64,000 nucleotides of DNA. Origin: Escherichia phage vB_EcoM_Schickermooser. Where the stretch lies: the sequence record NC_048196.1; one strand, given 5' to 3'. Under the pieces are notes generated by a model. That model did no database searches, was not told the DNA's origin, and saw only the letters and a program-made list of their open reading frames with translations. Below are positions 23,192 to 58,200 of the stretch, one piece after another (position 1 is the first letter of the stretch; each line of letters starts with the position of its first letter). Both the position numbers and the translations under genes were made by a program.

Positions 23192-23443
23192 ATGCCGATC
23201 ACTCCCCATTTGGGGTTCGAAGGATATATGCAAAATAGTTTTTATTTTAGGTGCCGTGCTTGTAATAGGCATTTGACAAACCACTCCAGACGTGATAAAA
23301 ATGGAGTCATCAAGGAATCAGACCTCTGTTCTATTTGCACAGGTTTGGCTTTTGATGATAGTCCCGAAAGGGTTTATCAGCATCAATGTATAACAGACGT
23401 TCTCGTGTCAAACTTGGTAGAGGACGAACAACTAACAGATTAG
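23192..23443 (+). CDS. hypothetical Cys-rich protein (83 aa)
   Basis: GAGGAG RBS. Confidence 0.4.
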   Translation: MPITPHLGFEGYMQNSFYFRCRACNRHLTNHSRRDKNGVIKESDLCSICTGLAFDDSPERVYQHQCITDVLVSNLVEDEQLTD

Positions 23444-23451
23444 GAGGAACA

Positions 23452-23700
23452 ATGTCTCTATTAGAAAAACACGTGTTTGAAGATGGTAACGGCAATGCAG
23501 TTTTTCTTTTCCATCCAGAAAAATACACATCTGAAAACAATGGTACAACTTCTATTGTAATCACTAAAGATGTTAAAGTTATTGATTTCTTGGCTCTGAT
23601 GCGAGAGATGGATCTTGAAATTAATACTTTTAACGCAGAAGCTTTGGTTGTTGCTCTTCTGGAAAAGAAAGATAGTGAAGAAGTAGCAGAATATGCTTAA
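23452..23700 (+). CDS. hypothetical protein (82 aa)
   Basis: AGGAGG RBS before ATG at 23452; track start 23386 likely too early. Confidence 0.45.
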   Translation: MSLLEKHVFEDGNGNAVFLFHPEKYTSENNGTTSIVITKDVKVIDFLALMREMDLEINTFNAEALVVALLEKKDSEEVAEYA

Positions 23701-23707
23701 ATAACTA

Positions 23708-23737
23708 TTGACAAACGTATCCTTCATATGTTAGGAT
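23708..23737 (+). promoter_or_regulatory. sigma70-like promoter, copy 1 of AACTATTGACAA family
   Basis: TTGACA-18nt-TAGGAT. Confidence 0.45.
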
Positions 23738-23946
23738 ACGTTCATCAAGTGTGGTAACAGGGTCGTTGACTTTTGTTAAGAGGGGCTTGCACTGCGGTAG
23801 TGTTAGAGACTACTTCTTCAGAGGTTAGCTACCAAAGAGGAAAAGGAATAGTCTCGGCTCAAGAACTTTTACGCTGAAAGTTGGGCTTGGTCTTAGAGAA
23901 TGTAGCGGTTCTCTACAATCGTCAGCGTCTCTGTTACCACATTTAT

Positions 23947-24021
23947 GGCCCTGTAGCTCAATGGGAGAGCTGTCGGCTCATAACCGATAGGTAGCTGGAT
24001 CGAAACCAGCCAGGGCCACCA
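23947..24021 (+). tRNA. tRNA-Met or Ile2 (anticodon CAT)
   Basis: Cloverleaf folded by hand; anticodon loop CTCATAA; encoded CCA. Confidence 0.8.
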
Positions 24022-24023
24022 AA

Positions 24024-24098
24024 GTCTTTATGGTGTAATGGATAGCACAGGAGTCTTCTAAACTCTTAGTCAAGGTTCGATTCCTTGTAAAGACACCA
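24024..24098 (+). tRNA. tRNA-Arg (TCT)
   Basis: 7-bp acceptor stem, loop CTTCTAA, T-loop TTCGATT, encoded CCA. Confidence 0.8.
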
Positions 24099-24294
24099 GA
24101 ACATTTTAACATGAATTAGCTCAAGTGATTTGAACCCACTACTGATCATGGTGGCAGAGAATGAGGCAAGTATGTCAGACATTATAAACAAAGGCCACGG
24201 TTATATTAGAAGACATAAATGCTCGAAGAGCACCGTTCGTGGAGAACGGGGGTTGGTGGAGTCACCATTCATGGTAAAATGTTTTAAAAAACTA

Positions 24295-24324
24295 TTGACA
24301 ACAAGTATTATTTTATGTTAGATT
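24295..24324 (+). promoter_or_regulatory. sigma70-like promoter, copy 2 of AACTATTGACAA family
   Basis: TTGACA-18nt-TAGATT. Confidence 0.45.
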
Positions 24325-24332
24325 ATAAGTAT

Positions 24333-24423
24333 GGAAGGGCAAATCGACGTGGCGACGAAAACGGTCTTGAAAACCGCCGAGCTTTAAAGAGCCTTGGGAG
24401 TTCGACTCTCCCTCCTTCCGCCA
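24333..24423 (+). tRNA. tRNA-Ser (TGA), long variable arm
   Basis: Loop CTTGAAA, long extra arm, discriminator G, CCA. Confidence 0.7.
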
Positions 24424-24428
24424 GGTTA

Positions 24429-24514
24429 GGTAGATTGGTGAAATGGTAGCCACGACAGTTTGCTAAACTGTAGTCGGAAACGGCGTGTAGGTTCGAGTCC
24501 TACATCTACCGCCA
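24429..24514 (+). tRNA. tRNA-Ser (GCT), long variable arm
   Basis: Stem ACAGT/ACTGT, loop TTGCTAA, long extra arm, G73, CCA. Confidence 0.75.
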
Positions 24515-24644
24515 AGTTCTTTTTAATGTAGCTTACTTTAATAGAGTAAACTTTCGGCAAATGGCCCCCACCATCTTACCGATAACTCATAGTTAGTGGT
24601 GCGAACACTGGCTATTTTAAAAAGAATTTAAATACTAGCATTTA

Positions 24645-24732
24645 GGTGAGTTAATTCCGTAGGGGTAGCGGGGCAGACTGTAAATCTGTTATCATTGCGA
24701 TTCGGGTGGTTCGACTCCATCACTCACCACCA
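24645..24732 (+). tRNA. tRNA-Tyr (GTA), long variable arm
   Basis: Anticodon arm GCAGA-CTGTAAA-TCTGT closely matches E. coli tRNA-Tyr; A73, CCA. Confidence 0.7.
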
Positions 24733-24738
24733 AATTAA

Positions 24739-24824
24739 GATGAGTTGGCTGAATGGTTTAAGCGGCGGACTGTTAATCCGTGTTCGAAAGAACGATATAG
24801 GTTCAAATCCTATACTCATCGCCA
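24739..24824 (+). tRNA. long-variable-arm tRNA with Asn-type anticodon arm (GTT)
   Basis: Acceptor GATGAGT/ACTCATC, 3-bp D-stem, anticodon arm GCGGA-CTGTTAA-TCCGT, 15-nt extra arm with GTTC-GAAA-GAAC hairpin, G73, CCA. Confidence 0.55.
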
Positions 24825-24831
24825 GAATTAT

Positions 24832-24910
24832 GGACTTGTAGAGTTAAGGTAAACCCCCCAGTCGCCAAGAGGCTTCTGGAATTGCAGGTATCGAATCCTG
24901 CCGAGTCCCA
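24832..24910 (+). ncRNA. tRNA-like element with degenerate D and anticodon arms
   Basis: Acceptor GGACTTG/CGAGTCC and T-arm-like hairpin present; no canonical anticodon arm. Confidence 0.25.
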
Positions 24911-24915
24911 GCTTT

Positions 24916-24990
24916 GCTCCTATAGTATAATGGCTATTACAACGGTTTTGTAATCCGTGGATCTCTGTTCGATTCAGAGTGGGAGCACCA
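24916..24990 (+). tRNA. tRNA-Thr (TGT)
   Basis: Loop TTTGTAA, T-loop TTCGATT, CCA; one mismatch closing anticodon stem. Confidence 0.7.
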
Positions 24991-25263
24991 ACACAACATT
25001 AAGGGCACTGTGATTGATCGTCGTATCCTGTGCACAAGGTCTGTTCGAAAGACAGTGTTCTTAGTATTGTGTTGATCACAAAAAGAGTTACCTGAAACTT
25101 GACCGGAGTAGGGTTGGATGGGGCAAAAGAAGAAGCGGCTCTCCCATCGACAGCAACGAAGAATAATATTTGACTTTGGTTTTGTATTATTTTAAGTTAG
25201 CTTACCGAACGTAGGGCTAGTCACCCAATGGGATACTCGTCACTGTCCCACTCAATAAAACTA

Positions 25264-25293
25264 TTGACAACCAATAGTAAAATGTAGTATAGT
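25264..25293 (+). promoter_or_regulatory. sigma70-like promoter, copy 3 of AACTATTGACAA family
   Basis: TTGACA-18nt-TATAGT. Confidence 0.55.
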
Positions 25294-25304
25294 AAAGATG
25301 TAGG

Positions 25305-25378
25305 GCGTTCTTGGTGTAGCGGTAGCATTCCGTCCTTCCAAGTCGGCGGCACGAGTTCGATCCTCGTAGAACGCTCCA
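25305..25378 (+). tRNA. tRNA-Gly (TCC)
   Basis: Loop CTTCCAA, T-arm ACGAGTTCGATCCTCGT, discriminator T, CCA; layout like E. coli tRNA-Gly. Confidence 0.75.
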
Positions 25379-25476
25379 AATTATTTAATAAAGGGTTGCC
25401 AGAAAACTTTCTCTTTTACTCATGGTTTTCTCCTTCTCTCACACCTCTTCTGGTTGCCCTTCATTAAATGATTTAT

Positions 25477-25552
25477 TGGTTTGTAGTGTAGTCAGGTAGC
25501 ACACGACACTTTGACTGTCGTAGGTTTGGTTCAAATCCAGACAGACCAGCCA
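25477..25552 (+). tRNA. tRNA-Gln (TTG)
   Basis: Stem CGACA/TGTCG, loop CTTTGAC, CCA. Confidence 0.7.
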
Positions 25553-25557
25553 TATAA

Positions 25558-25634
25558 CGGAATTTAGCTCAGTTTGGTAGAGCATACGCTTTGGGAGCGT
25601 AGGGTCGCAGGTTCGAATCCTGCAATTCCGACCA
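25558..25634 (+). tRNA. tRNA-Pro (TGG)
   Basis: D-arm GCTCAGTTTGGTAGAGC, loop TTTGGGA, CCA. Confidence 0.8.
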
Positions 25635-25640
25635 ATTTAA

Positions 25641-25714
25641 TGTTTCGTAGTTCAATGGTAGAACCCACGACTGATAATCGTGAGACACAAGTTCGATTCT
25701 TGTCGAAACAACCA
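25641..25714 (+). tRNA. tRNA-Ile (GAT)
   Basis: Stem CACGA/TCGTG, loop CTGATAA, CCA. Confidence 0.75.
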
Positions 25715-25716
25715 AT

Positions 25717-25790
25717 TTCCCGTTAGACTTACAGGATAAGAGTTCCACAGCTTATTGTGATGCTGGTTCGAATCCAGCACGGGATACATA
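25717..25790 (+). ncRNA. tRNA-like element with non-canonical anticodon arm
   Basis: Acceptor, D and T arms (GCTGG-TTCGAAT-CCAGC) present; anticodon region folds only as CACAG-CTTA-TTGTG hairpin; no encoded CCA. Confidence 0.3.
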
Positions 25791-25792
25791 AT

Positions 25793-25871
25793 AGCGGGAT
25801 AGAGGAGTCTGGTCGTCCTCGCCAGTTTCATATGCTGGAGATCATCGGTTCAAATCCGATTCCCGCCTCCA
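25793..25871 (+). tRNA. tRNA-Met or Ile2 (anticodon CAT), second CAT tRNA
   Basis: Loop TTCATAT, T-loop TTCAAAT, CCA; A1-C72 mismatch. Confidence 0.65.
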
Positions 25872-25984
25872 AATATCGCTTGCCAGCGGTATCTTTGAAG
25901 ACCTTGCCTGGTTCCTTCTAAGATGGAGGGGTGCGACTCCTTAACGCACAACATACTACTACTAAATACTTATCAGGAGATATC

Positions 25985-26254
25985 ATGTATACTTTAAAAG
26001 TAATTCGCAAGTTTCCTCAAGAAGAGGAAGTAAGAATTTATAACACTGTACCATTCGTAGTAAATGAAGAAGAATTCTTTTATTGCTTAGAAGATGAAGT
26101 AATTATTCAATATCATTGGGAAGGTTACGACAGACAAGATGGTGTTGTAGCTTCTGTGCTTGCTGGTGATAGAGTGTTATTCATTCACAAAACTGAATCA
26201 GCATATCTAATGAATGATAAAGGACAAACTGTTAAAGTAATTAACAGACCATAA
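25985..26254 (+). CDS. hypothetical protein (89 aa)
   Basis: ATG preceded by AGGAGA; track start 25931 lies in tRNA spacer. Confidence 0.5.
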   Translation: MYTLKVIRKFPQEEEVRIYNTVPFVVNEEEFFYCLEDEVIIQYHWEGYDRQDGVVASVLAGDRVLFIHKTESAYLMNDKGQTVKVINRP

Positions 26255-26266
26255 AGAATTTTATAA

Positions 26267-26290
26267 AAGCCTCCTTATTGGAGGCTTTTT
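26267..26290 (+). terminator. rho-independent terminator
   Basis: AAGCCTCC-TTATT-GGAGGCTTTTT. Confidence 0.55.
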
Positions 26291-26309
26291 GCTATCTATT
26301 GAATAAAAC

Positions 26310-53263: not shown

Positions 53264-54325
53264 ATGGCGAAGCCAATATATTATCCTGACTGGGCTACAC
53301 AAACTGTAACGCTCCCAGGAACTTTAAACACAAACAAAATTAGACCTAAAGAAACCATCCGCACAGTTGGTATGGATTATGGTCAAATCATGACTTGCGA
53401 AGAAATGAACTGGATTCTTAATAATATCGGTTTATGGATTCGCTATTTGGTGGATGACTTTCTTCCAACTTTACCTAATACCTACTTGCCTTTAGTGGGA
53501 ACTAAGATTACAATGGCAGGTGATGCTACTGGTGAGGCTACTTGGAACGGTAACAAAGAAGTTACTTTATCTATCCAGGTTCAAGATAACAGTCATAATC
53601 ACTTGTCGGCAAACATTACGGATGCCACTAGTTCAACAGTAACACCAAACGTGTTGGTAAAACGTGATGCGGGTGGTGCTATTTATGGTGGTGATGTTTA
53701 TGTTAACGGTACTTCCACAACAGATCCTGCAACACTGTTCTTCAAAAACTTTGCAGGACAAACGAATGGTGAGATTTCTGCCGAGTATCAAAGCGGAGGT
53801 CAGCTTTACATCTACCGTAGAAATCCTAGCACAGGTAGTGTATCGGCAGGTGTTCGTTTATATGATGCAGGTTATGTTCTAATAGATAATCCAAGATCAA
53901 ACAGTGGACAAGACACTTCTAACGGAAATGCTTTAGTTCGTTTAGATTATCTGAACTCTCGTTTGACTTCCCTTCAGAACACATTGCAGACGAATATTAA
54001 CACTGTTCAAAACAACTTGAATAATGTTAACAACAACCTCTCTTCTCGTATAAACAATGTAGAAAGTAATCATCAAAGTCAGATTACAAATAACTACAAC
54101 TATGCTAACGGAACCTTTGTAAGAGATATTCGTTATACTAGCCAAGGTGTGTATTATCCACCAGGGAACGAGGTTTCTTGGACTTATATCTGTTCTTCTG
54201 GTTATGTTCTTTCTGGTATTATCGTACAGGAAACAGGACGTAGCTCTGCGGATAACATCGGTGGGGTTTACTTCAAACGCCTCCAGCGCAACGTTAACGG
54301 AAACTGGTACGATATTGGAGGCTAA
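53264..54325 (+). CDS. tail fibre protein (353 aa)
   Basis: Asn/Gln-rich coiled-coil segment NTLQTNINTVQNNLNNVNNNL. Confidence 0.45.
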   Translation: MAKPIYYPDWATQTVTLPGTLNTNKIRPKETIRTVGMDYGQIMTCEEMNWILNNIGLWIRYLVDDFLPTLPNTYLPLVGTKITMAGDATGEATWNGNKEVTLSIQVQDNSHNHLSANITDATSSTVTPNVLVKRDAGGAIYGGDVYVNGTSTTDPATLFFKNFAGQTNGEISAEYQSGGQLYIYRRNPSTGSVSAGVRLYDAGYVLIDNPRSNSGQDTSNGNALVRLDYLNSRLTSLQNTLQTNINTVQNNLNNVNNNLSSRINNVESNHQSQITNNYNYANGTFVRDIRYTSQGVYYPPGNEVSWTYICSSGYVLSGIIVQETGRSSADNIGGVYFKRLQRNVNGNWYDIGG

Positions 54326-54871
54326 ATGATATTTACAAACTTTAAAAAATATATTCCTGAAGACCCTGAACTAAAAGAATTGGTAGAAGCAGAGAACATT
54401 CTTTTTCTTCGTTGCGATCAAGGTTACGATTGGTATGATTTACGTAGCACAGAATTCAATAACGATAAAATGAAAGTCGTTTTTGATGATCAAAATCGTA
54501 TTGTGTTTTGGAATACTGATCCTACACTACTTTGCCCTGAAGATCTTTCTATAGCACAAGTAGACTTTAACATAGATACTTTTGAGGATATTAGGAACAA
54601 GGTTCTGGATTTAGAAACCTTAACTCTTAAGAATAAAGAGTATTCCCGTGAAGAGTTGATGACACAAGCTAGTGCAAAAATTCGCTCTTTACAAGAAACA
54701 GCGGTAGCACTTATAACACCTTTACAGTATGCTAAAGATTTAGAAATGGCTACTGAAGACGAATTAGCTTATCTTAAAAATCTTCAAGTTTATGTAGTTA
54801 AACTAAATCGTGTTCCGCTTCAAAAAGACTATCCTTACGCTATAGATTGGCCTACATTACCGACAGAATAA
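54326..54871 (+). CDS. possible tail fibre assembly protein (181 aa)
   Basis: Position after fibre gene. Confidence 0.35.
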   Translation: MIFTNFKKYIPEDPELKELVEAENILFLRCDQGYDWYDLRSTEFNNDKMKVVFDDQNRIVFWNTDPTLLCPEDLSIAQVDFNIDTFEDIRNKVLDLETLTLKNKEYSREELMTQASAKIRSLQETAVALITPLQYAKDLEMATEDELAYLKNLQVYVVKLNRVPLQKDYPYAIDWPTLPTE

Positions 54872-54880
54872 GGGATCACT

Positions 54881-55216
54881 ATGGAATTTCAAGAAGCATG
54901 GGGACTTGCAAAGGATGCAATAATCCCTTTAATCGGAGTCATCTGGTTCTTTTTCAAACAAAAAATGGATAAATTCGGCTCTGATCTTGAGGAAATGGAG
55001 GAGAAAAGTCGAGAGCTAGAGAAGAAGTTGGTCTTTGTTGAATCAACTTATGCAACTAAAGCCGAACTTACCCAGATGCTAAATCAAATTAACTCTACAT
55101 TAATGGCAAATAATAACACCCTTGAGCAAAAAATTGAAAAGATTATGGACCTCAAGAATGCGACTATCCAAATGATGCTAGATGACATAGTTAAACGTAC
55201 ACAGAATAAGGGGTAA
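54881..55216 (+). CDS. hypothetical coiled-coil protein (111 aa)
   Basis: Track ORF. Confidence 0.4.
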   Translation: MEFQEAWGLAKDAIIPLIGVIWFFFKQKMDKFGSDLEEMEEKSRELEKKLVFVESTYATKAELTQMLNQINSTLMANNNTLEQKIEKIMDLKNATIQMMLDDIVKRTQNKG

Positions 55217-55219
55217 TTA

Positions 55220-58200
55220 ATGGCAACATTCCCAACATATCCAGCAACGTCTCTCGAACAGGGCGTAGACCTGGTTATTTTCTCATCTAACCAACTCCAT
55301 GATGTTATTAATGGAAGTGCTACAGAGAGTATTGAAACAGAATCAGGGTTGATACCAACCCTGAGAAAAGCCCTTGTTGACAACTTTTTCTTTAAAAGCC
55401 CATTGGATTGGGCGCAAGGCACAAACGAAACAGTTTTTAACCAACTACGTTATTTTCAGAATGGGGTATTGAGCGGTTATTATTATGCTCCTAATGCTAC
55501 ATTGGTAAACCCAATCCCTATGCAAGGTACTCCAGTAGGAGATAACAACTGGGTATTGTGGGGATTGAAGACAGAACAATTGGCAACAGAAGTCACACCT
55601 TGGGTATATTCTGGTGCAACGGGTTATGAAACAGTAATTAGTCCTCCTTACATCTTTGATAGTGCTATTGTTACGATCAATGGTGTTATTCAGGTTCTGG
55701 GGGAAGCTTTCCGTATAGAAGATAGTAAGATCATCTTATCTGAACCTTTGGGACACGATCCTGCAACAGGACTGCCAAACAAACTTTTTGCTTATATTGG
55801 CAAAATCGTAGCTTCAGCAGATACAGATCCTAATCTAGAGAACCGTCTTGTTAGTTTAGAAACAAAAACGGAAGAACTAACAGAAAGTATGGATAAAGTC
55901 CCTCTGCAAACTATTGCTCGTAAGTATGGTTTGTTAGATGATGAGGTGGCTTACGCAACAGCAGGTCAATCGTTAACAGGGATTAAAGCTCTATATGATC
56001 CGGTAGCGCAGTCTTCCTACACATTACCTCCTAACATTACAGGCACTTTAACATCCCTGTCTGTTTCTGGAGTAATGACTTATTCTGGAGGATCTGTAGA
56101 CCTTTCTGCACTGGCTGTTGAGCGTGGACAGTTTGTTCATTTGCCTACAAGCTTTGGTAATAATGTAACTCTGACAGCTAAAAATCAGACGATTGGACGT
56201 GGCGCTGGTCGTTATCGTTGGGCTGGAAGTTTACCAAAAAGTATTTTGGCTTCTGATACATTGGAGACGAGCGGAGGATTAGGTCCAAATGCATGGGTTC
56301 TGACTAATACAGAAGGACTGTTAACCCCTCGTGGTGGAACATACAACGATTTATTCGATGTTGTCTACTTGTCCGAATTTGCTAACAATACAACTACCTA
56401 TACCACACCAGAAGCAGCTTTCCAGGCGGCACTGTTAGCAGCAAAAGCTTCGAAAAGCAAGATTCTCGATGCTTACGGTTGCGATATGACTTTCACGACA
56501 AGCTCTTTTGATATTCAAGGTATCACTTTGCGTGGGGGTGTGTTCCGTGGTCAACGCGACTATCGTGTGCAAAATGCTACGGTAGAAGGCACAACTTTCC
56601 GTAACTCTCGTGTTATGTATTGGGGTGGTGCTGTGCGCATGTTCGATTGTTTATGGGATGGTGCTCCTCGCGCAGGTCAAGTTGGTAGCTTGGTATTCCA
56701 AGGCAACCCAATATCAGGTACTTTTGAAATTGATAATTGTACTTTTAAAAACGGGTTATATGGCATTCTTCAACAAGGAACAGGGGAACCAGTAACACGT
56801 GGTGTCTTCCGTAACCTTACCTTCATGGACATGCAAGGTGATGCAATAGAACTGAACGTCATCAATAAACATTATGACGATGGTTGTGTGATTGAGAATA
56901 TTTACCTGTCTAATATCGATGGAACTAATGCTCCTATTCCTCTGTCGAACTGGGGTATCGGTATCGGTGTAGCTGGTAAAGGACCATATGGTTACGGAAT
57001 TCCTGATGATCAATATTGCAAGAATATTACAATTCGTAACGTTTTTGCAAAACGTTGCCGTCAGATTGTCCACGTAGAAGTTGGTCGTAATATTTCTATC
57101 GAAAACATTCATGGCGATCCAGATCAAACCGTATCTGTTGGGACAGGTTTGGCAACTGGCGCAGTTGTAATGTATGGAAGTAAAGATTTTACGATTGACG
57201 GTGTTTATGGAGAGCCTAAAACAGACGGTAGCACACTTGCAAGTAATATCCGTATGATTTATTTGGAGTGGGGAACTAACGCAGTTCTGGACGAAGAGGG
57301 TAATCCGGTAGTTCCGGCACAGGGTAGACCTTCAAACCCATGTTTTAACTATTCTGTTCGTAACATTCACACCAAAACTGGGCGTGTTTTTGCGGGAGTT
57401 TCCGCTGGGCCAGGTTATGAAAACAGAGTTAGCTTTGAAAATATTCGTTGCGCTGCATTGCAGTTGTTCGGTATAGCTTCTTGGCTTTCAATGTCTAACA
57501 TCACCTGTAATATCTTCGATTGTGTTGGTCAACCTGAATCTGGTCCAGGAACATTTTATGATGGATTCTTCCGTAGAGAAAAATCTGTTCTTGAAATGGT
57601 TAACGTAAACTGTTACCCAGATGGCAAGACGATGGTTACTGGTCGTCCACAGTGGAGCCGTTGCCGTTACTCGGATATTCATCGTGTCAACTGTAATGTT
57701 GAAGCTAATATGTATACCAATATCGCAGGTGGTATTGGAGCTATTGTAGGGACAACGGGCAAAGTTTATTACTTAGAGCCTAATCCTAGTCGAAACATTG
57801 ATGGAATGCATTTCCCAACAGGGAAAGAGTTTGACAAAGGTGATATGATAGTCAAAGCGGATAATACGTTCTTCCTTGTAACAACAAGTGGGGCATATAT
57901 TCCAGATATCCCAGCTTTCGGTATTCGAGCTACACAGGCAGGAGATACCTTCCTGACACAGAACTTGACTCCTAACGGGACAGCAACAAATGCTTCTTGG
58001 TTGTATCATTACCCTCTGTCAGCAGGGACACGTATCCGTATTCCTGGTGCTGGCGTAGGTGGAGCAGATTTGGACACAGTTATTACTCGTGCACCTTATC
58101 AAGATAATGATACGTGGACTAACCCAGTTAAAATAGACATTGCAGATCCAATTGTAACGCCTACAAGTGCTGGAGTTAGAATTAAAACCATACCTAATGA

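Follow-up and report, generated by a model that had tools for sequence, protein, structure and literature searches.

What is encoded between the tRNA genes of a bacteriophage tRNA array? Work on phage tRNA clusters has focused on the tRNAs themselves, namely on codon supply and on the escape from anticodon nucleases (PMC10264068). The question is raised by the array of Escherichia phage vB_EcoM_Schickermooser (NC_048196.1), which we analysed within a window of 64,000 nucleotides; all positions given here are those of this window. The array lies at 23.7-25.9 kb on the + strand and consists of 12 tRNAs, two tRNA-like elements (X1 and X2) and five spacers (S1-S5), and the 2.4 kb around it are ~99% identical to Escherichia phage anhysbys and other phAPEC8-like myoviruses (Phapecoctavirus, Stephanstirmvirinae). 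The original prediction had described the spacers as segments without a convincing open reading frame (ORF) but with many inverted repeats, and had proposed that they encode small stable RNAs, as in the tRNA region of phage T4, or processing signals. The five segments it listed (23738-23946, 24099-24294, 24515-24644, 24991-25263 and 25379-25476) are, besides the two tRNA-sized gaps X1 and X2, exactly what the tRNAs called by ARAGORN and Rfam leave uncovered, and only ORFs of at most 63 amino acids overlap them. Our comparative data show that S1, S2, S3 and S5 are conserved structured non-coding RNAs, as they carry compensatory changes beyond those in the controls, for which shuffles (S2, n=500) and slid-partner pairings were used. 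Helices kept by compensatory substitutions imply that the spacers are functional RNA elements transcribed from the + strand. We are inclined to think, with some reserve, that they would be processing units and functional small RNAs at once.

S2 (24099..24287, + strand) is a structured RNA of ~190 nt without a conserved ORF. An alignment of 15 distinct sequences from four lineages, 195 columns long, gave a consensus fold of 44 pairs; 16 of these 44 pairs are changed on both sides and 98.9% of the cells are paired. This covariation was reached by none of the 500 shuffles, and the slid-partner controls produced 0-6 such pairs. The fold is closed by helix P1 of 17-19 bp. The P3 hairpin has a stem covarying at four of its six pairs and the invariant loop CUGAUCA, the P4 domain is variable and supported by covariation only at its base, the P5 hairpin reads CCGUUC[GYGGA]GAACGG, and the P6 hairpin, GGUG[GAGU]CACC, is invariant (loops in brackets). 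Altogether ~80 positions, many of them in loops and junctions, are invariant across lineages that are only ~70% identical. The conserved G-U pairs fit the + strand only, therefore the + strand is the RNA strand. The comparative sequence data thus provide solid support for regarding S2 as a new, unnamed conserved RNA family.

By BLAST, 96 phage records contain S2, without exception within the tRNA array, and the element is there either unannotated or covered by inconsistent tiny ORF calls. It is present in Phapecoctavirus and, at decreasing identity, in the phiWec179 group (82%), in Klebsiella phage 05F01 (71%) and in Seunavirus (~70%; PVP-SE1, SSE121, 4MG, GAP31, FENT2 and EspYZU15), which makes four lineages across Stephanstirmvirinae and Vequintavirinae. 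Searched against the window, the remainder of the anhysbys genome and nine related arrays, the covariance model found one copy per genome, and there was no match in Paula, KP13-26, A73 or the T4 region. A single scan covering 185,579 bacterial and archaeal genomes yielded zero matches, two motif patterns retrieved the same four contigs from IMG/VR, and one metagenome scan returned four contigs, all of the same lineages. Therefore, the S2 family is narrow and phage-only. Rfam held no match to it, neither in the window nor in the homologous region of PVP-SE1. In Klebsiella phage 05F01 S2 occupies precisely the whole interval from tRNA-Met to tRNA-Leu, and in Seunavirus it abuts tRNA-Leu(TAA); this exact fit between tRNAs indicates that the ends of S2 coincide with tRNA processing sites. 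The Seunavirus arrays showed two more features: in PVP-SE1 ~1 kb between tRNA-Ile and tRNA-Leu stands without any annotation, and upstream of S2 there is an unannotated tRNA-like element, directly adjacent to it in SSE121 and 4MG (L009:3700-3804; L003 ~215-300; L004 ~2800-2908), which ends with GGTTCGATTCC...CTCCA and is given 27 bits by the Sec-type model of Rfam.

The other spacers were compared in the same way. S1 (23745..23946, + strand) is a 5' leader module of ~200 nt with a multi-branched interior; it ends 2-3 nt before tRNA-Met and its closing helix of 22 bp (23747-23769 with 23922-23944) is almost invariant. It was found only in Phapecoctavirus and in the phiWec179 group. Between the window and phiWec179 (81% identity) not one of the 66 predicted pairs is broken and eight carry changes on both sides, compared with 0-1 in the slid controls; as S1, like S4, occurs in two close lineages only, these statistics are those of a single pairwise comparison, with the structure predicted on the very alignment used to score it. 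S3 (24515..24632, + strand), a module of ~118 nt with two conserved internal hairpins, sits after tRNA-Ser(GCT) in five Stephanstirmvirinae lineages. Covariation affects 7 of its 33 pairs; in the closing helix of 17 bp (24514-24532 with 24611-24629) five of 17 pairs are changed on both sides, 98.8% of the cells are paired and one position shows four pair types. S5 (25379..25474, + strand) begins immediately past the CCA of tRNA-Gly and is built of a 24-bp closing stem and a pyrimidine-rich loop (25405-25447). Its stems are extensively rewritten among the window, Paula and Klebsiella phage KP13-26, which represent three genera, and are still 23-26 bp long. S4 (24991..25258, + strand) opens with a 5' hairpin (24989-25074) on a stem of 22 bp; a conserved linker comes next, then a middle that varies, and finally a 3' part, again conserved, which leads into the third promoter of the array. 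Its first ~135 nt differ from phiWec179 at only three positions and the middle has diverged; in Paula, the S4 position is taken by a protein gene, a paralogue of the ~89-aa ORF that follows the array in the window. Related phages thus keep elements of S1-S5, which answers the question of conservation that the original prediction had posed.

Could some of these spacers simply code for small proteins? The candidates are a 63-aa ORF with a TTG start at 24130-24321, which is the longest ORF overlapping any spacer, ORFs of 34-37 aa in S1 and a 12-aa micro-ORF on the minus strand of S5. The PHANOTATE-style annotations of WPEC4 and FENT2 do call tiny hypothetical proteins in the spacers, and on the minus strand of S5 a textbook ribosome-binding site, GAAGGAGAAAACC-ATG, precedes the micro-ORF. 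However, the 63-aa frame is not kept in other lineages, and a coding role of S2 was rejected, since from one lineage to the next its open frames change strand, phase and length, and the lengths of the indels are not divisible by three. An S5 peptide is also unlikely: the micro-ORF has 12, 8 and 12 codons, with frame shifts, in the window, Paula and KP13-26, respectively. Moreover, most records annotate nothing in these regions, no minus-strand promoter is evident, and the covariation is a signature of RNA. We regard coding as very unlikely, the least probable of the explanations considered.

The modules share an architecture. The five longest inverted repeats in 23700-26000 belong to S1 (arms of 35 nt), S5 (27), the 5' hairpin of S4 (23), S3 (19) and S2 (17). 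Each spacer was folded and compared with dinucleotide shuffles, and S1 (z = -4.95), S2 (-4.2), S3 (-3.0) and S5 (-5.7) proved more stable than the shuffled sequences. In these four, closing helices of 17-24 bp pair the module's own 5' and 3' ends; the long helix of S4 is its 5' hairpin, without end-to-end closure. The helices begin 0-3 nt past the encoded CCA of the upstream tRNA or, in the case of S1, 2-3 nt past the transcription start. The next tRNA follows directly after S1, S3 and S5, with a gap of at most 3 nt for S1 and S5, and in this phage S2 and S4 run into the second and third promoters. In four other arrays (Paula, 05F01, KP13-26 and GAP31) we observed spacers of 93-190 nt with closing helices of 16-25 bp and z down to -6.6, together with spacers of ~80 nt closed by acceptor-like helices of 6-9 bp. 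The long-stem module architecture therefore seems to be general in rV5-like tRNA arrays. One such module, between tRNA-Trp and tRNA-Gln of Cronobacter phage GAP31 (L010:5372-5508), has a 21-bp closing helix and z = -6.1, and its sequence is unrelated to S1-S5. An extra stem-closed module of 93 nt stands between tRNA-Gln and tRNA-Pro in phAPEC8 (L016:15809-15901) and in phiWec179 (L005:4500-4592). Its presence or absence among close relatives indicates that whole spacer modules are gained or lost as units.

Short sequences recur among the spacers as well. A D-arm-like UAGCU occurs once each in S1, S2, S3 and S4 (23825, 24116, 24528 and 25197), and S3 and S4 share UUUUAA-N-(G/U)UAGCUUAC; the 8-mer TAGCTTAC, present in both, is found only three times on the + strand of the window. 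In the search for motifs shared among the spacers the enrichment of UAGCU and TAGCTTAC was weak. Their sharing could be a trace of tRNA ancestry or a common recognition site.

S2, X1 and X2 show tRNA-like features. Read by eye, S2 has a tRNA-like order of parts: an acceptor-like P1, UAGCUCAG, an insertion of ~105 nt, GUAGAGC, a hairpin like an anticodon arm, AGGUC, a short T-like hairpin and the 3' strand of P1. Its 3' half was aligned by nhmmer to a T4 tRNA with E = 0.59, which is not significant. As a tRNA, S2 fails all tests: Rfam gave no tRNA match, the T-like hairpin ends in the tetraloop GAGU, the closing helix measures 17-19 bp and CCA is lacking. We put forward the hypothesis that S2 may be, by origin, a heavily remodelled tRNA.

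X1 (24832..24908, + strand) and X2 (25718..25786, + strand) correspond to two elements at 24832-24910 and 25717-25790 that the original prediction had described as keeping the acceptor and T arms without a canonical anticodon arm. The acceptor and T arms are indeed there and a 7-nt anticodon loop is missing from both, but the description fell short for the second element, which also keeps a normal D arm and is clearly tRNA-derived. In the predicted fold of X1, the acceptor stem is 7 bp long, the loop of the T arm has 8 nt and the D region keeps its conserved sequence without forming a D stem; a hairpin with a 4-nt loop replaces the anticodon arm, and CCA is not encoded. Its homologue in Paula, at the same position between tRNA-Asn and tRNA-Thr, carries compensatory changes in three helices, namely acceptor stem, T stem and central hairpin. 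X2 retains complete acceptor, D and T arms; its anticodon arm is reduced to 4 bp and a loop of 6 nt, and CCA has degenerated to ACA. From end to end it can be aligned to a phiEB49 tRNA as well as to an element of the Vequintavirinae phage A73; the acceptor stem covaries, and relative to the aligned tRNA the anticodon loop has a 3-nt deletion. ARAGORN called neither element, and neither matched the Rfam tRNA model even at E<=10. Judged by cloverleaf, 7-nt anticodon loop and CCA, X1 and X2 are not tRNAs; by their predicted folds, they are tRNA-shaped RNAs that would be unable to decode. Outside the window, anhysbys encodes a putative tRNA nucleotidyltransferase / poly(A) polymerase (L049:2342-2935), which may matter for X1 and X2, as they have no encoded CCA.

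One would argue that the spacers and the X elements are remnants of decaying tRNAs or of mobile insertions, devoid of any function today and conserved through kinship alone. X2 fits this notion well, as it clearly derives from a tRNA and both its anticodon loop and its CCA are damaged; so do the tRNA-like pieces of S2 (UAGCUCAG, GUAGAGC, the AGGUC 'variable loop' and the short T-like hairpin) and the insertion and deletion of modules between close relatives. However, pairing is retained at 98-100% through 8-16 double substitutions, S2 persists across two subfamilies at ~70% identity with invariant loops, and the acceptor stems of X1 and X2 covary. Selection on the stems of X1 and X2 argues against simply dead genes. 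Thus it is very unlikely that decay explains the array.

A purely cis-acting role of the spacers is the main rival. According to it, they would be sites cleaved by RNase III or guiding RNase E, at which the polycistronic precursor is divided into individual tRNAs and which also insulate the tRNA folds, and their interiors would be degraded by-products. The helices stand exactly at the tRNA borders and, at 17-24 bp, measure about two turns; helices of this length are the size class of RNase III substrates. The closing helix of S3 is more conserved than its interior, whole modules come and go between close relatives, and Paula has a protein gene in place of S4. On the other hand, the ~80 invariant positions of S2 include loops and junctions, the 36-nt loop of S5 is nearly invariant as its stem changes freely, and the interior helices of S1 are kept by eight compensatory changes. 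Conservation of this kind, in S2, S5 and S1 alike, exceeds the needs of a cleavage signal. Therefore, we favour the dual role, and regard a purely cis-acting one as possible but doubtful. The small stable RNAs and the processing signals, offered earlier as alternatives, probably both apply.

Several facts weigh against the dual role. S4 folded as a whole reaches z of only -1.2 and is no better than its shuffles, and for S1 and S4 the comparison has the pairwise limits given above. KP13-26 keeps the closing helix of S3 around a replaced interior, as expected of a cis signal around a dispensable interior, and the absence of the 93-nt Gln-Pro module from the window (25553-25557) and from anhysbys likewise fits cis helices around dispensable interiors. 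A helix that starts right at CCA could hinder the 3' maturation of the tRNA. The literature contained no transcriptome or small-RNA study of Phapecoctavirus or Seunavirus that we could find.

What the S5 loop displays can be described from its sequence. The apical part, UUUCUCUUUU..CUCAUGGUUUUCUCCUUC, is a nearly invariant pyrimidine-rich loop of 36 nt (a stretch of the loop reads CUCAUGGUUUUCUCC), and it is single-stranded in the predicted folds of all three lineages. The loop core CUCAUGGUUUUCUCCUUC is exactly complementary to GAAGGAGAAAACCAUGAG, that is, to a perfect Shine-Dalgarno site and a start codon. BLAST of the antisense of the loop against complete E. coli genomes pointed to a single locus, the gap gene next to cybB (gapC): 20 nt of S5 (25415-25434) are perfectly complementary to gapC (L022:401-420) at its Shine-Dalgarno sequence, start codon and third codon, and this holds in 3,829 of 5,426 complete E. 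coli genomes. The estimated chance of such a match is roughly 1e-3 or less for one 5-Mb genome. No second target site of the loop was found in the 64 kb window. In a duplex scan of the whole phage genome several phage start regions, including the start site of an early gene, paired with the loop at -28 to -35 kcal/mol; the start of anhysbys_113 (L050 ~12109) reached -34.8 kcal/mol, compared with -33.2 kcal/mol for the host gene gapC. The 18-mer of the loop is a common ribosome-binding-site sequence, with 26 exact matches in IMG/VR. As phage ribosome-binding sites pair comparably and the 18-mer is common, gapC as the unique target of S5 was not upheld as a finding and is kept as a lead only. 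S5 is thus predicted to display a generic conserved anti-ribosome-binding-site sequence, and its putative action as a riboregulator is a testable lead.

How would the modules be transcribed? The original prediction had placed three near-identical promoter cores at 23703, 24289 and 25259. There are three copies indeed, and they are exact rather than near-identical, but the middle one begins at 24290. The core AACTATTGACAA occurs exactly three times in the 64 kb window (23703, 24290 and 25259), always on the + strand and within the array, against a chance expectation of ~0.9 matches even with one mismatch allowed. Each copy provides TTGACA, followed after an 18-nt spacer by TAGGAT, TAGATT or TATAGT, with an upstream TG on the first two; all three thus match the sigma-70 consensus at 10-11 of 12 positions. 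In phiWec179 and Paula, TTGACA and a -10 element of the TGTTAGAT type stand at the three equivalent positions and the bases between them differ, so the -35/-10 pairs are kept despite changed surroundings, in line with the promoter reading.

Promoter P1 (23703..23737, + strand; TG-extended TAGGAT) has an inferred start at ~23744-23745, 2-3 nt before the S1 helix, and its position is kept in phiWec179 (L005:2609). A 16-nt inverted repeat, TTGACAAACGTATCCT / AGGATACGTTCATCAA (23708-23748), covers its -35 to -10 region just past the stop codon of the upstream ORF, and in phiWec179 both arms are changed together (AGCGTGTCTT / AAGATACGCT). This repeat could serve as an operator or form a hairpin at the 3' end of the upstream mRNA. 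Promoter P2 (24290..24324, + strand; TG-extended TAGATT) would start transcription at ~24331, 1-2 nt before a Ser(UGA)-like tRNA, and promoter P3 (25259..25293, + strand; TATAGT, 11 of 12 consensus matches) ~5 nt before tRNA-Gly.

The end of the array is marked by a conserved 5' untranslated region of 114 nt, which is 92% identical in Paula, a small ORF (ATG 25986 to 26254, ~89 aa) and an intrinsic terminator, together at 25872..26295 on the + strand as read from the sequence and the ORF list. The terminator, GCCTCC-TTATT-GGAGGC-TTTTT at ~26268-26293, was read directly from the sequence, having been missed by the consensus terminator scan, and is the first clear one, after the post-array small ORF. 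The same scan called no spacer helix as a + strand terminator. We also considered the closing helices as intrinsic terminators and rejected this: none was called, and a tRNA directly follows S2 in 05F01 and Seunavirus, so transcription must read through S2 there. Since no spacer helix terminates transcription and the first terminator comes after the array, the array is best described as three consecutive units. These back-to-back sigma-70 units would run from P1 through S1-Met-Arg-S2, from P2 through Ser-Ser-S3-Tyr-Asn-X1-Thr-S4, and from P3 through Gly-S5-Gln-Pro-Ile-X2-Met and the small ORF up to the terminator. Read-through between the three units is likely, judging from the arrangement of these signals.

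From such precursors the modules may be released in the course of tRNA maturation. RNase P would cut at the 5' end of the downstream tRNA, and the 3' end of the upstream tRNA would be matured by RNase E and exonucleases, possibly with RNase III cuts inside the long helices. The modules would then be set free as small RNAs with both ends base-paired, hence protected: helix-locked ends would resist exonucleases and the 5'-end-dependent RNase E, and the 5' end of S1 would be a triphosphate. The helices would also stop the spacers from mispairing with neighbouring tRNAs and, at about two turns, would be possible RNase III sites. The sequence comparisons show that the modules are non-coding and conserved, that their structure covaries, on which strand they are read and that the promoters are kept; their excision, stability and any trans-acting function are what we infer.

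In phage T4, the tRNA region gives rise to two small RNAs whose role is still unknown (PMC3014915). The analogy with T4 drawn in the original prediction holds for the genomic context and not for homology, since none of the spacers is homologous to T4 rnaC or rnaD. Nothing significant in the T4 region was returned by the S2 covariance model, by nhmmer with S2 or by blastn of every element (rnaC, L015:1409-1547; rnaD, L015:1554-1672). Like the modules described here, RNA C and RNA D of T4 (species 1 and species 2 RNAs) are non-tRNA species whose genes lie among or beside those of the phage tRNAs, in the same orientation, and because of this position both kinds would be made from the same precursors as the tRNAs. 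The sizes are also similar (~120-140 nt in T4, 95-200 nt here), and the fold of T4 rnaC has a tRNA-like T arm and paired ends (z = -4.6). The modules of the present array differ in being more numerous, in having much longer terminal helices (17-24 bp) and in residing in unrelated myoviruses (Stephanstirmvirinae and Vequintavirinae).

Other known RNAs offer partial likenesses. GOLLD and ROOL are ornate conserved non-coding phage RNAs of unknown function, typically found beside tRNA genes; they are ~600-800 nt long, with Rfam families that do not match the window, compared with 95-200 nt and unrelated sequence here. The Rfam scan, run with Rfam 15 at gathering and permissive thresholds, returned only tRNAs and noise: tRNAs alone reach the gathering threshold in the window, and the permissive scans of 23400-26100 and of the PVP-SE1 region gave no credible spacer match. 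The RNase III stems of the rRNA operon (16S/23S) and of the R sites in T7 early transcripts are also helices of about two turns, formed by sequences flanking a unit and placed to separate neighbours. However, the rRNA operon stem encloses a functional RNA and here the stem encloses the spacer itself, and although helices of 17-24 bp would be compatible with RNase III, the interiors of S1, S2 and S5 appear conserved beyond the needs of a cleavage site. YrlA and other Y-RNA-like RNAs, mascRNA and the tRNA-like domain of tmRNA keep parts of a tRNA without a decoding anticodon loop, as do X1, X2 and probably S2, which retain an acceptor-type helix, D-arm sequence and a T-type hairpin; X1, X2 and S2 would probably be recognised by RNase P. 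S2 departs from this type in its 17-bp 'acceptor' helix, the ~105-nt insertion at the place of the D loop and the 4-nt T-like loop. The Rfam matches to YrlA and mascRNA were weak only and overlapped real tRNAs, and no Ro/Rsr gene is annotated in the related genomes examined.

The tRNA genes that frame the modules are all on the + strand. ARAGORN called ten of them between 23947 and 25871, and Rfam added two that ARAGORN had missed: tRNA-Tyr(GTA) (24645-24729) and a sub-threshold type-II tRNA (24333-24419) with the anticodon loop of Ser(UGA). The latter, a divergent Ser(UGA)-like tRNA with encoded CCA (24333..24422), scores 38 bits on the Rfam tRNA-Sec model against a threshold of 47 bits, and its counterpart in Paula is a canonical tRNA-Ser(TGA). 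From 5' to 3', the remaining genes are tRNA-Met(CAT) and tRNA-Arg(TCT) (23947..24098), tRNA-Ser(GCT) (24429..24514), tRNA-Asn(GTT), which shares 24645..24824 with tRNA-Tyr, tRNA-Thr(TGT) (24916..24990), tRNA-Gly(TCC) (25305..25378), and tRNA-Gln(TTG), tRNA-Pro(TGG) and tRNA-Ile(GAT) (25477..25714), all supported by ARAGORN and Rfam. The last one is an atypical tRNA(CAT) of 79 nt (25793..25871), called by both programs and listed as a pseudo-tRNA in the annotation of phAPEC8. Away from the array, the early region of anhysbys has a 1.6-kb stretch without an annotated gene (L050:8853-10463; anhysbys 53853-55463, outside the window).

A more daring reading would make S2, S5, X1 and X2 together trans-acting phage riboregulators of new classes, which we hold to be improbable as a whole. 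In this riboregulator reading, S2 may be a phage-only, tRNA-derived RNA that acts either as a ribonucleoprotein or in homodimeric form; the hexamer UGAUCA within CUGAUCA, the one hairpin loop of S2 that is invariant, is self-complementary, like the kissing-loop sites through which RNAs dimerise. S5 may be an anti-ribosome-binding-site small RNA, freed by tRNA processing, that blocks the translation of a host gapC-type mRNA or of a phage early mRNA. X1 and X2 may be non-decoding tRNA mimics: decoys or substrates either of defence nucleases that target tRNAs or of the CCA-adding enzyme encoded by the phage itself.

Phage tRNA clusters are usually annotated as tRNAs plus junk. Here, ~900 nt of 'spacer' are under clear selection for RNA structure in widespread therapeutic-candidate phages whose hosts are E. 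coli, Salmonella, Klebsiella and Cronobacter, and several concrete new RNA families emerge: S2, S3, S5 and the tRNA-like element X1. In the ~100 or more GenBank records examined, these regions are unannotated or bear inconsistent tiny ORF calls, and the calling of tiny ORFs there should stop. As far as comparative sequence analysis can tell, the modules extend a known kind, the small RNAs embedded in phage tRNA operons. A question more than 50 years old, the role of the small RNAs co-transcribed with phage tRNAs, is thereby reopened in tractable phage-host systems.

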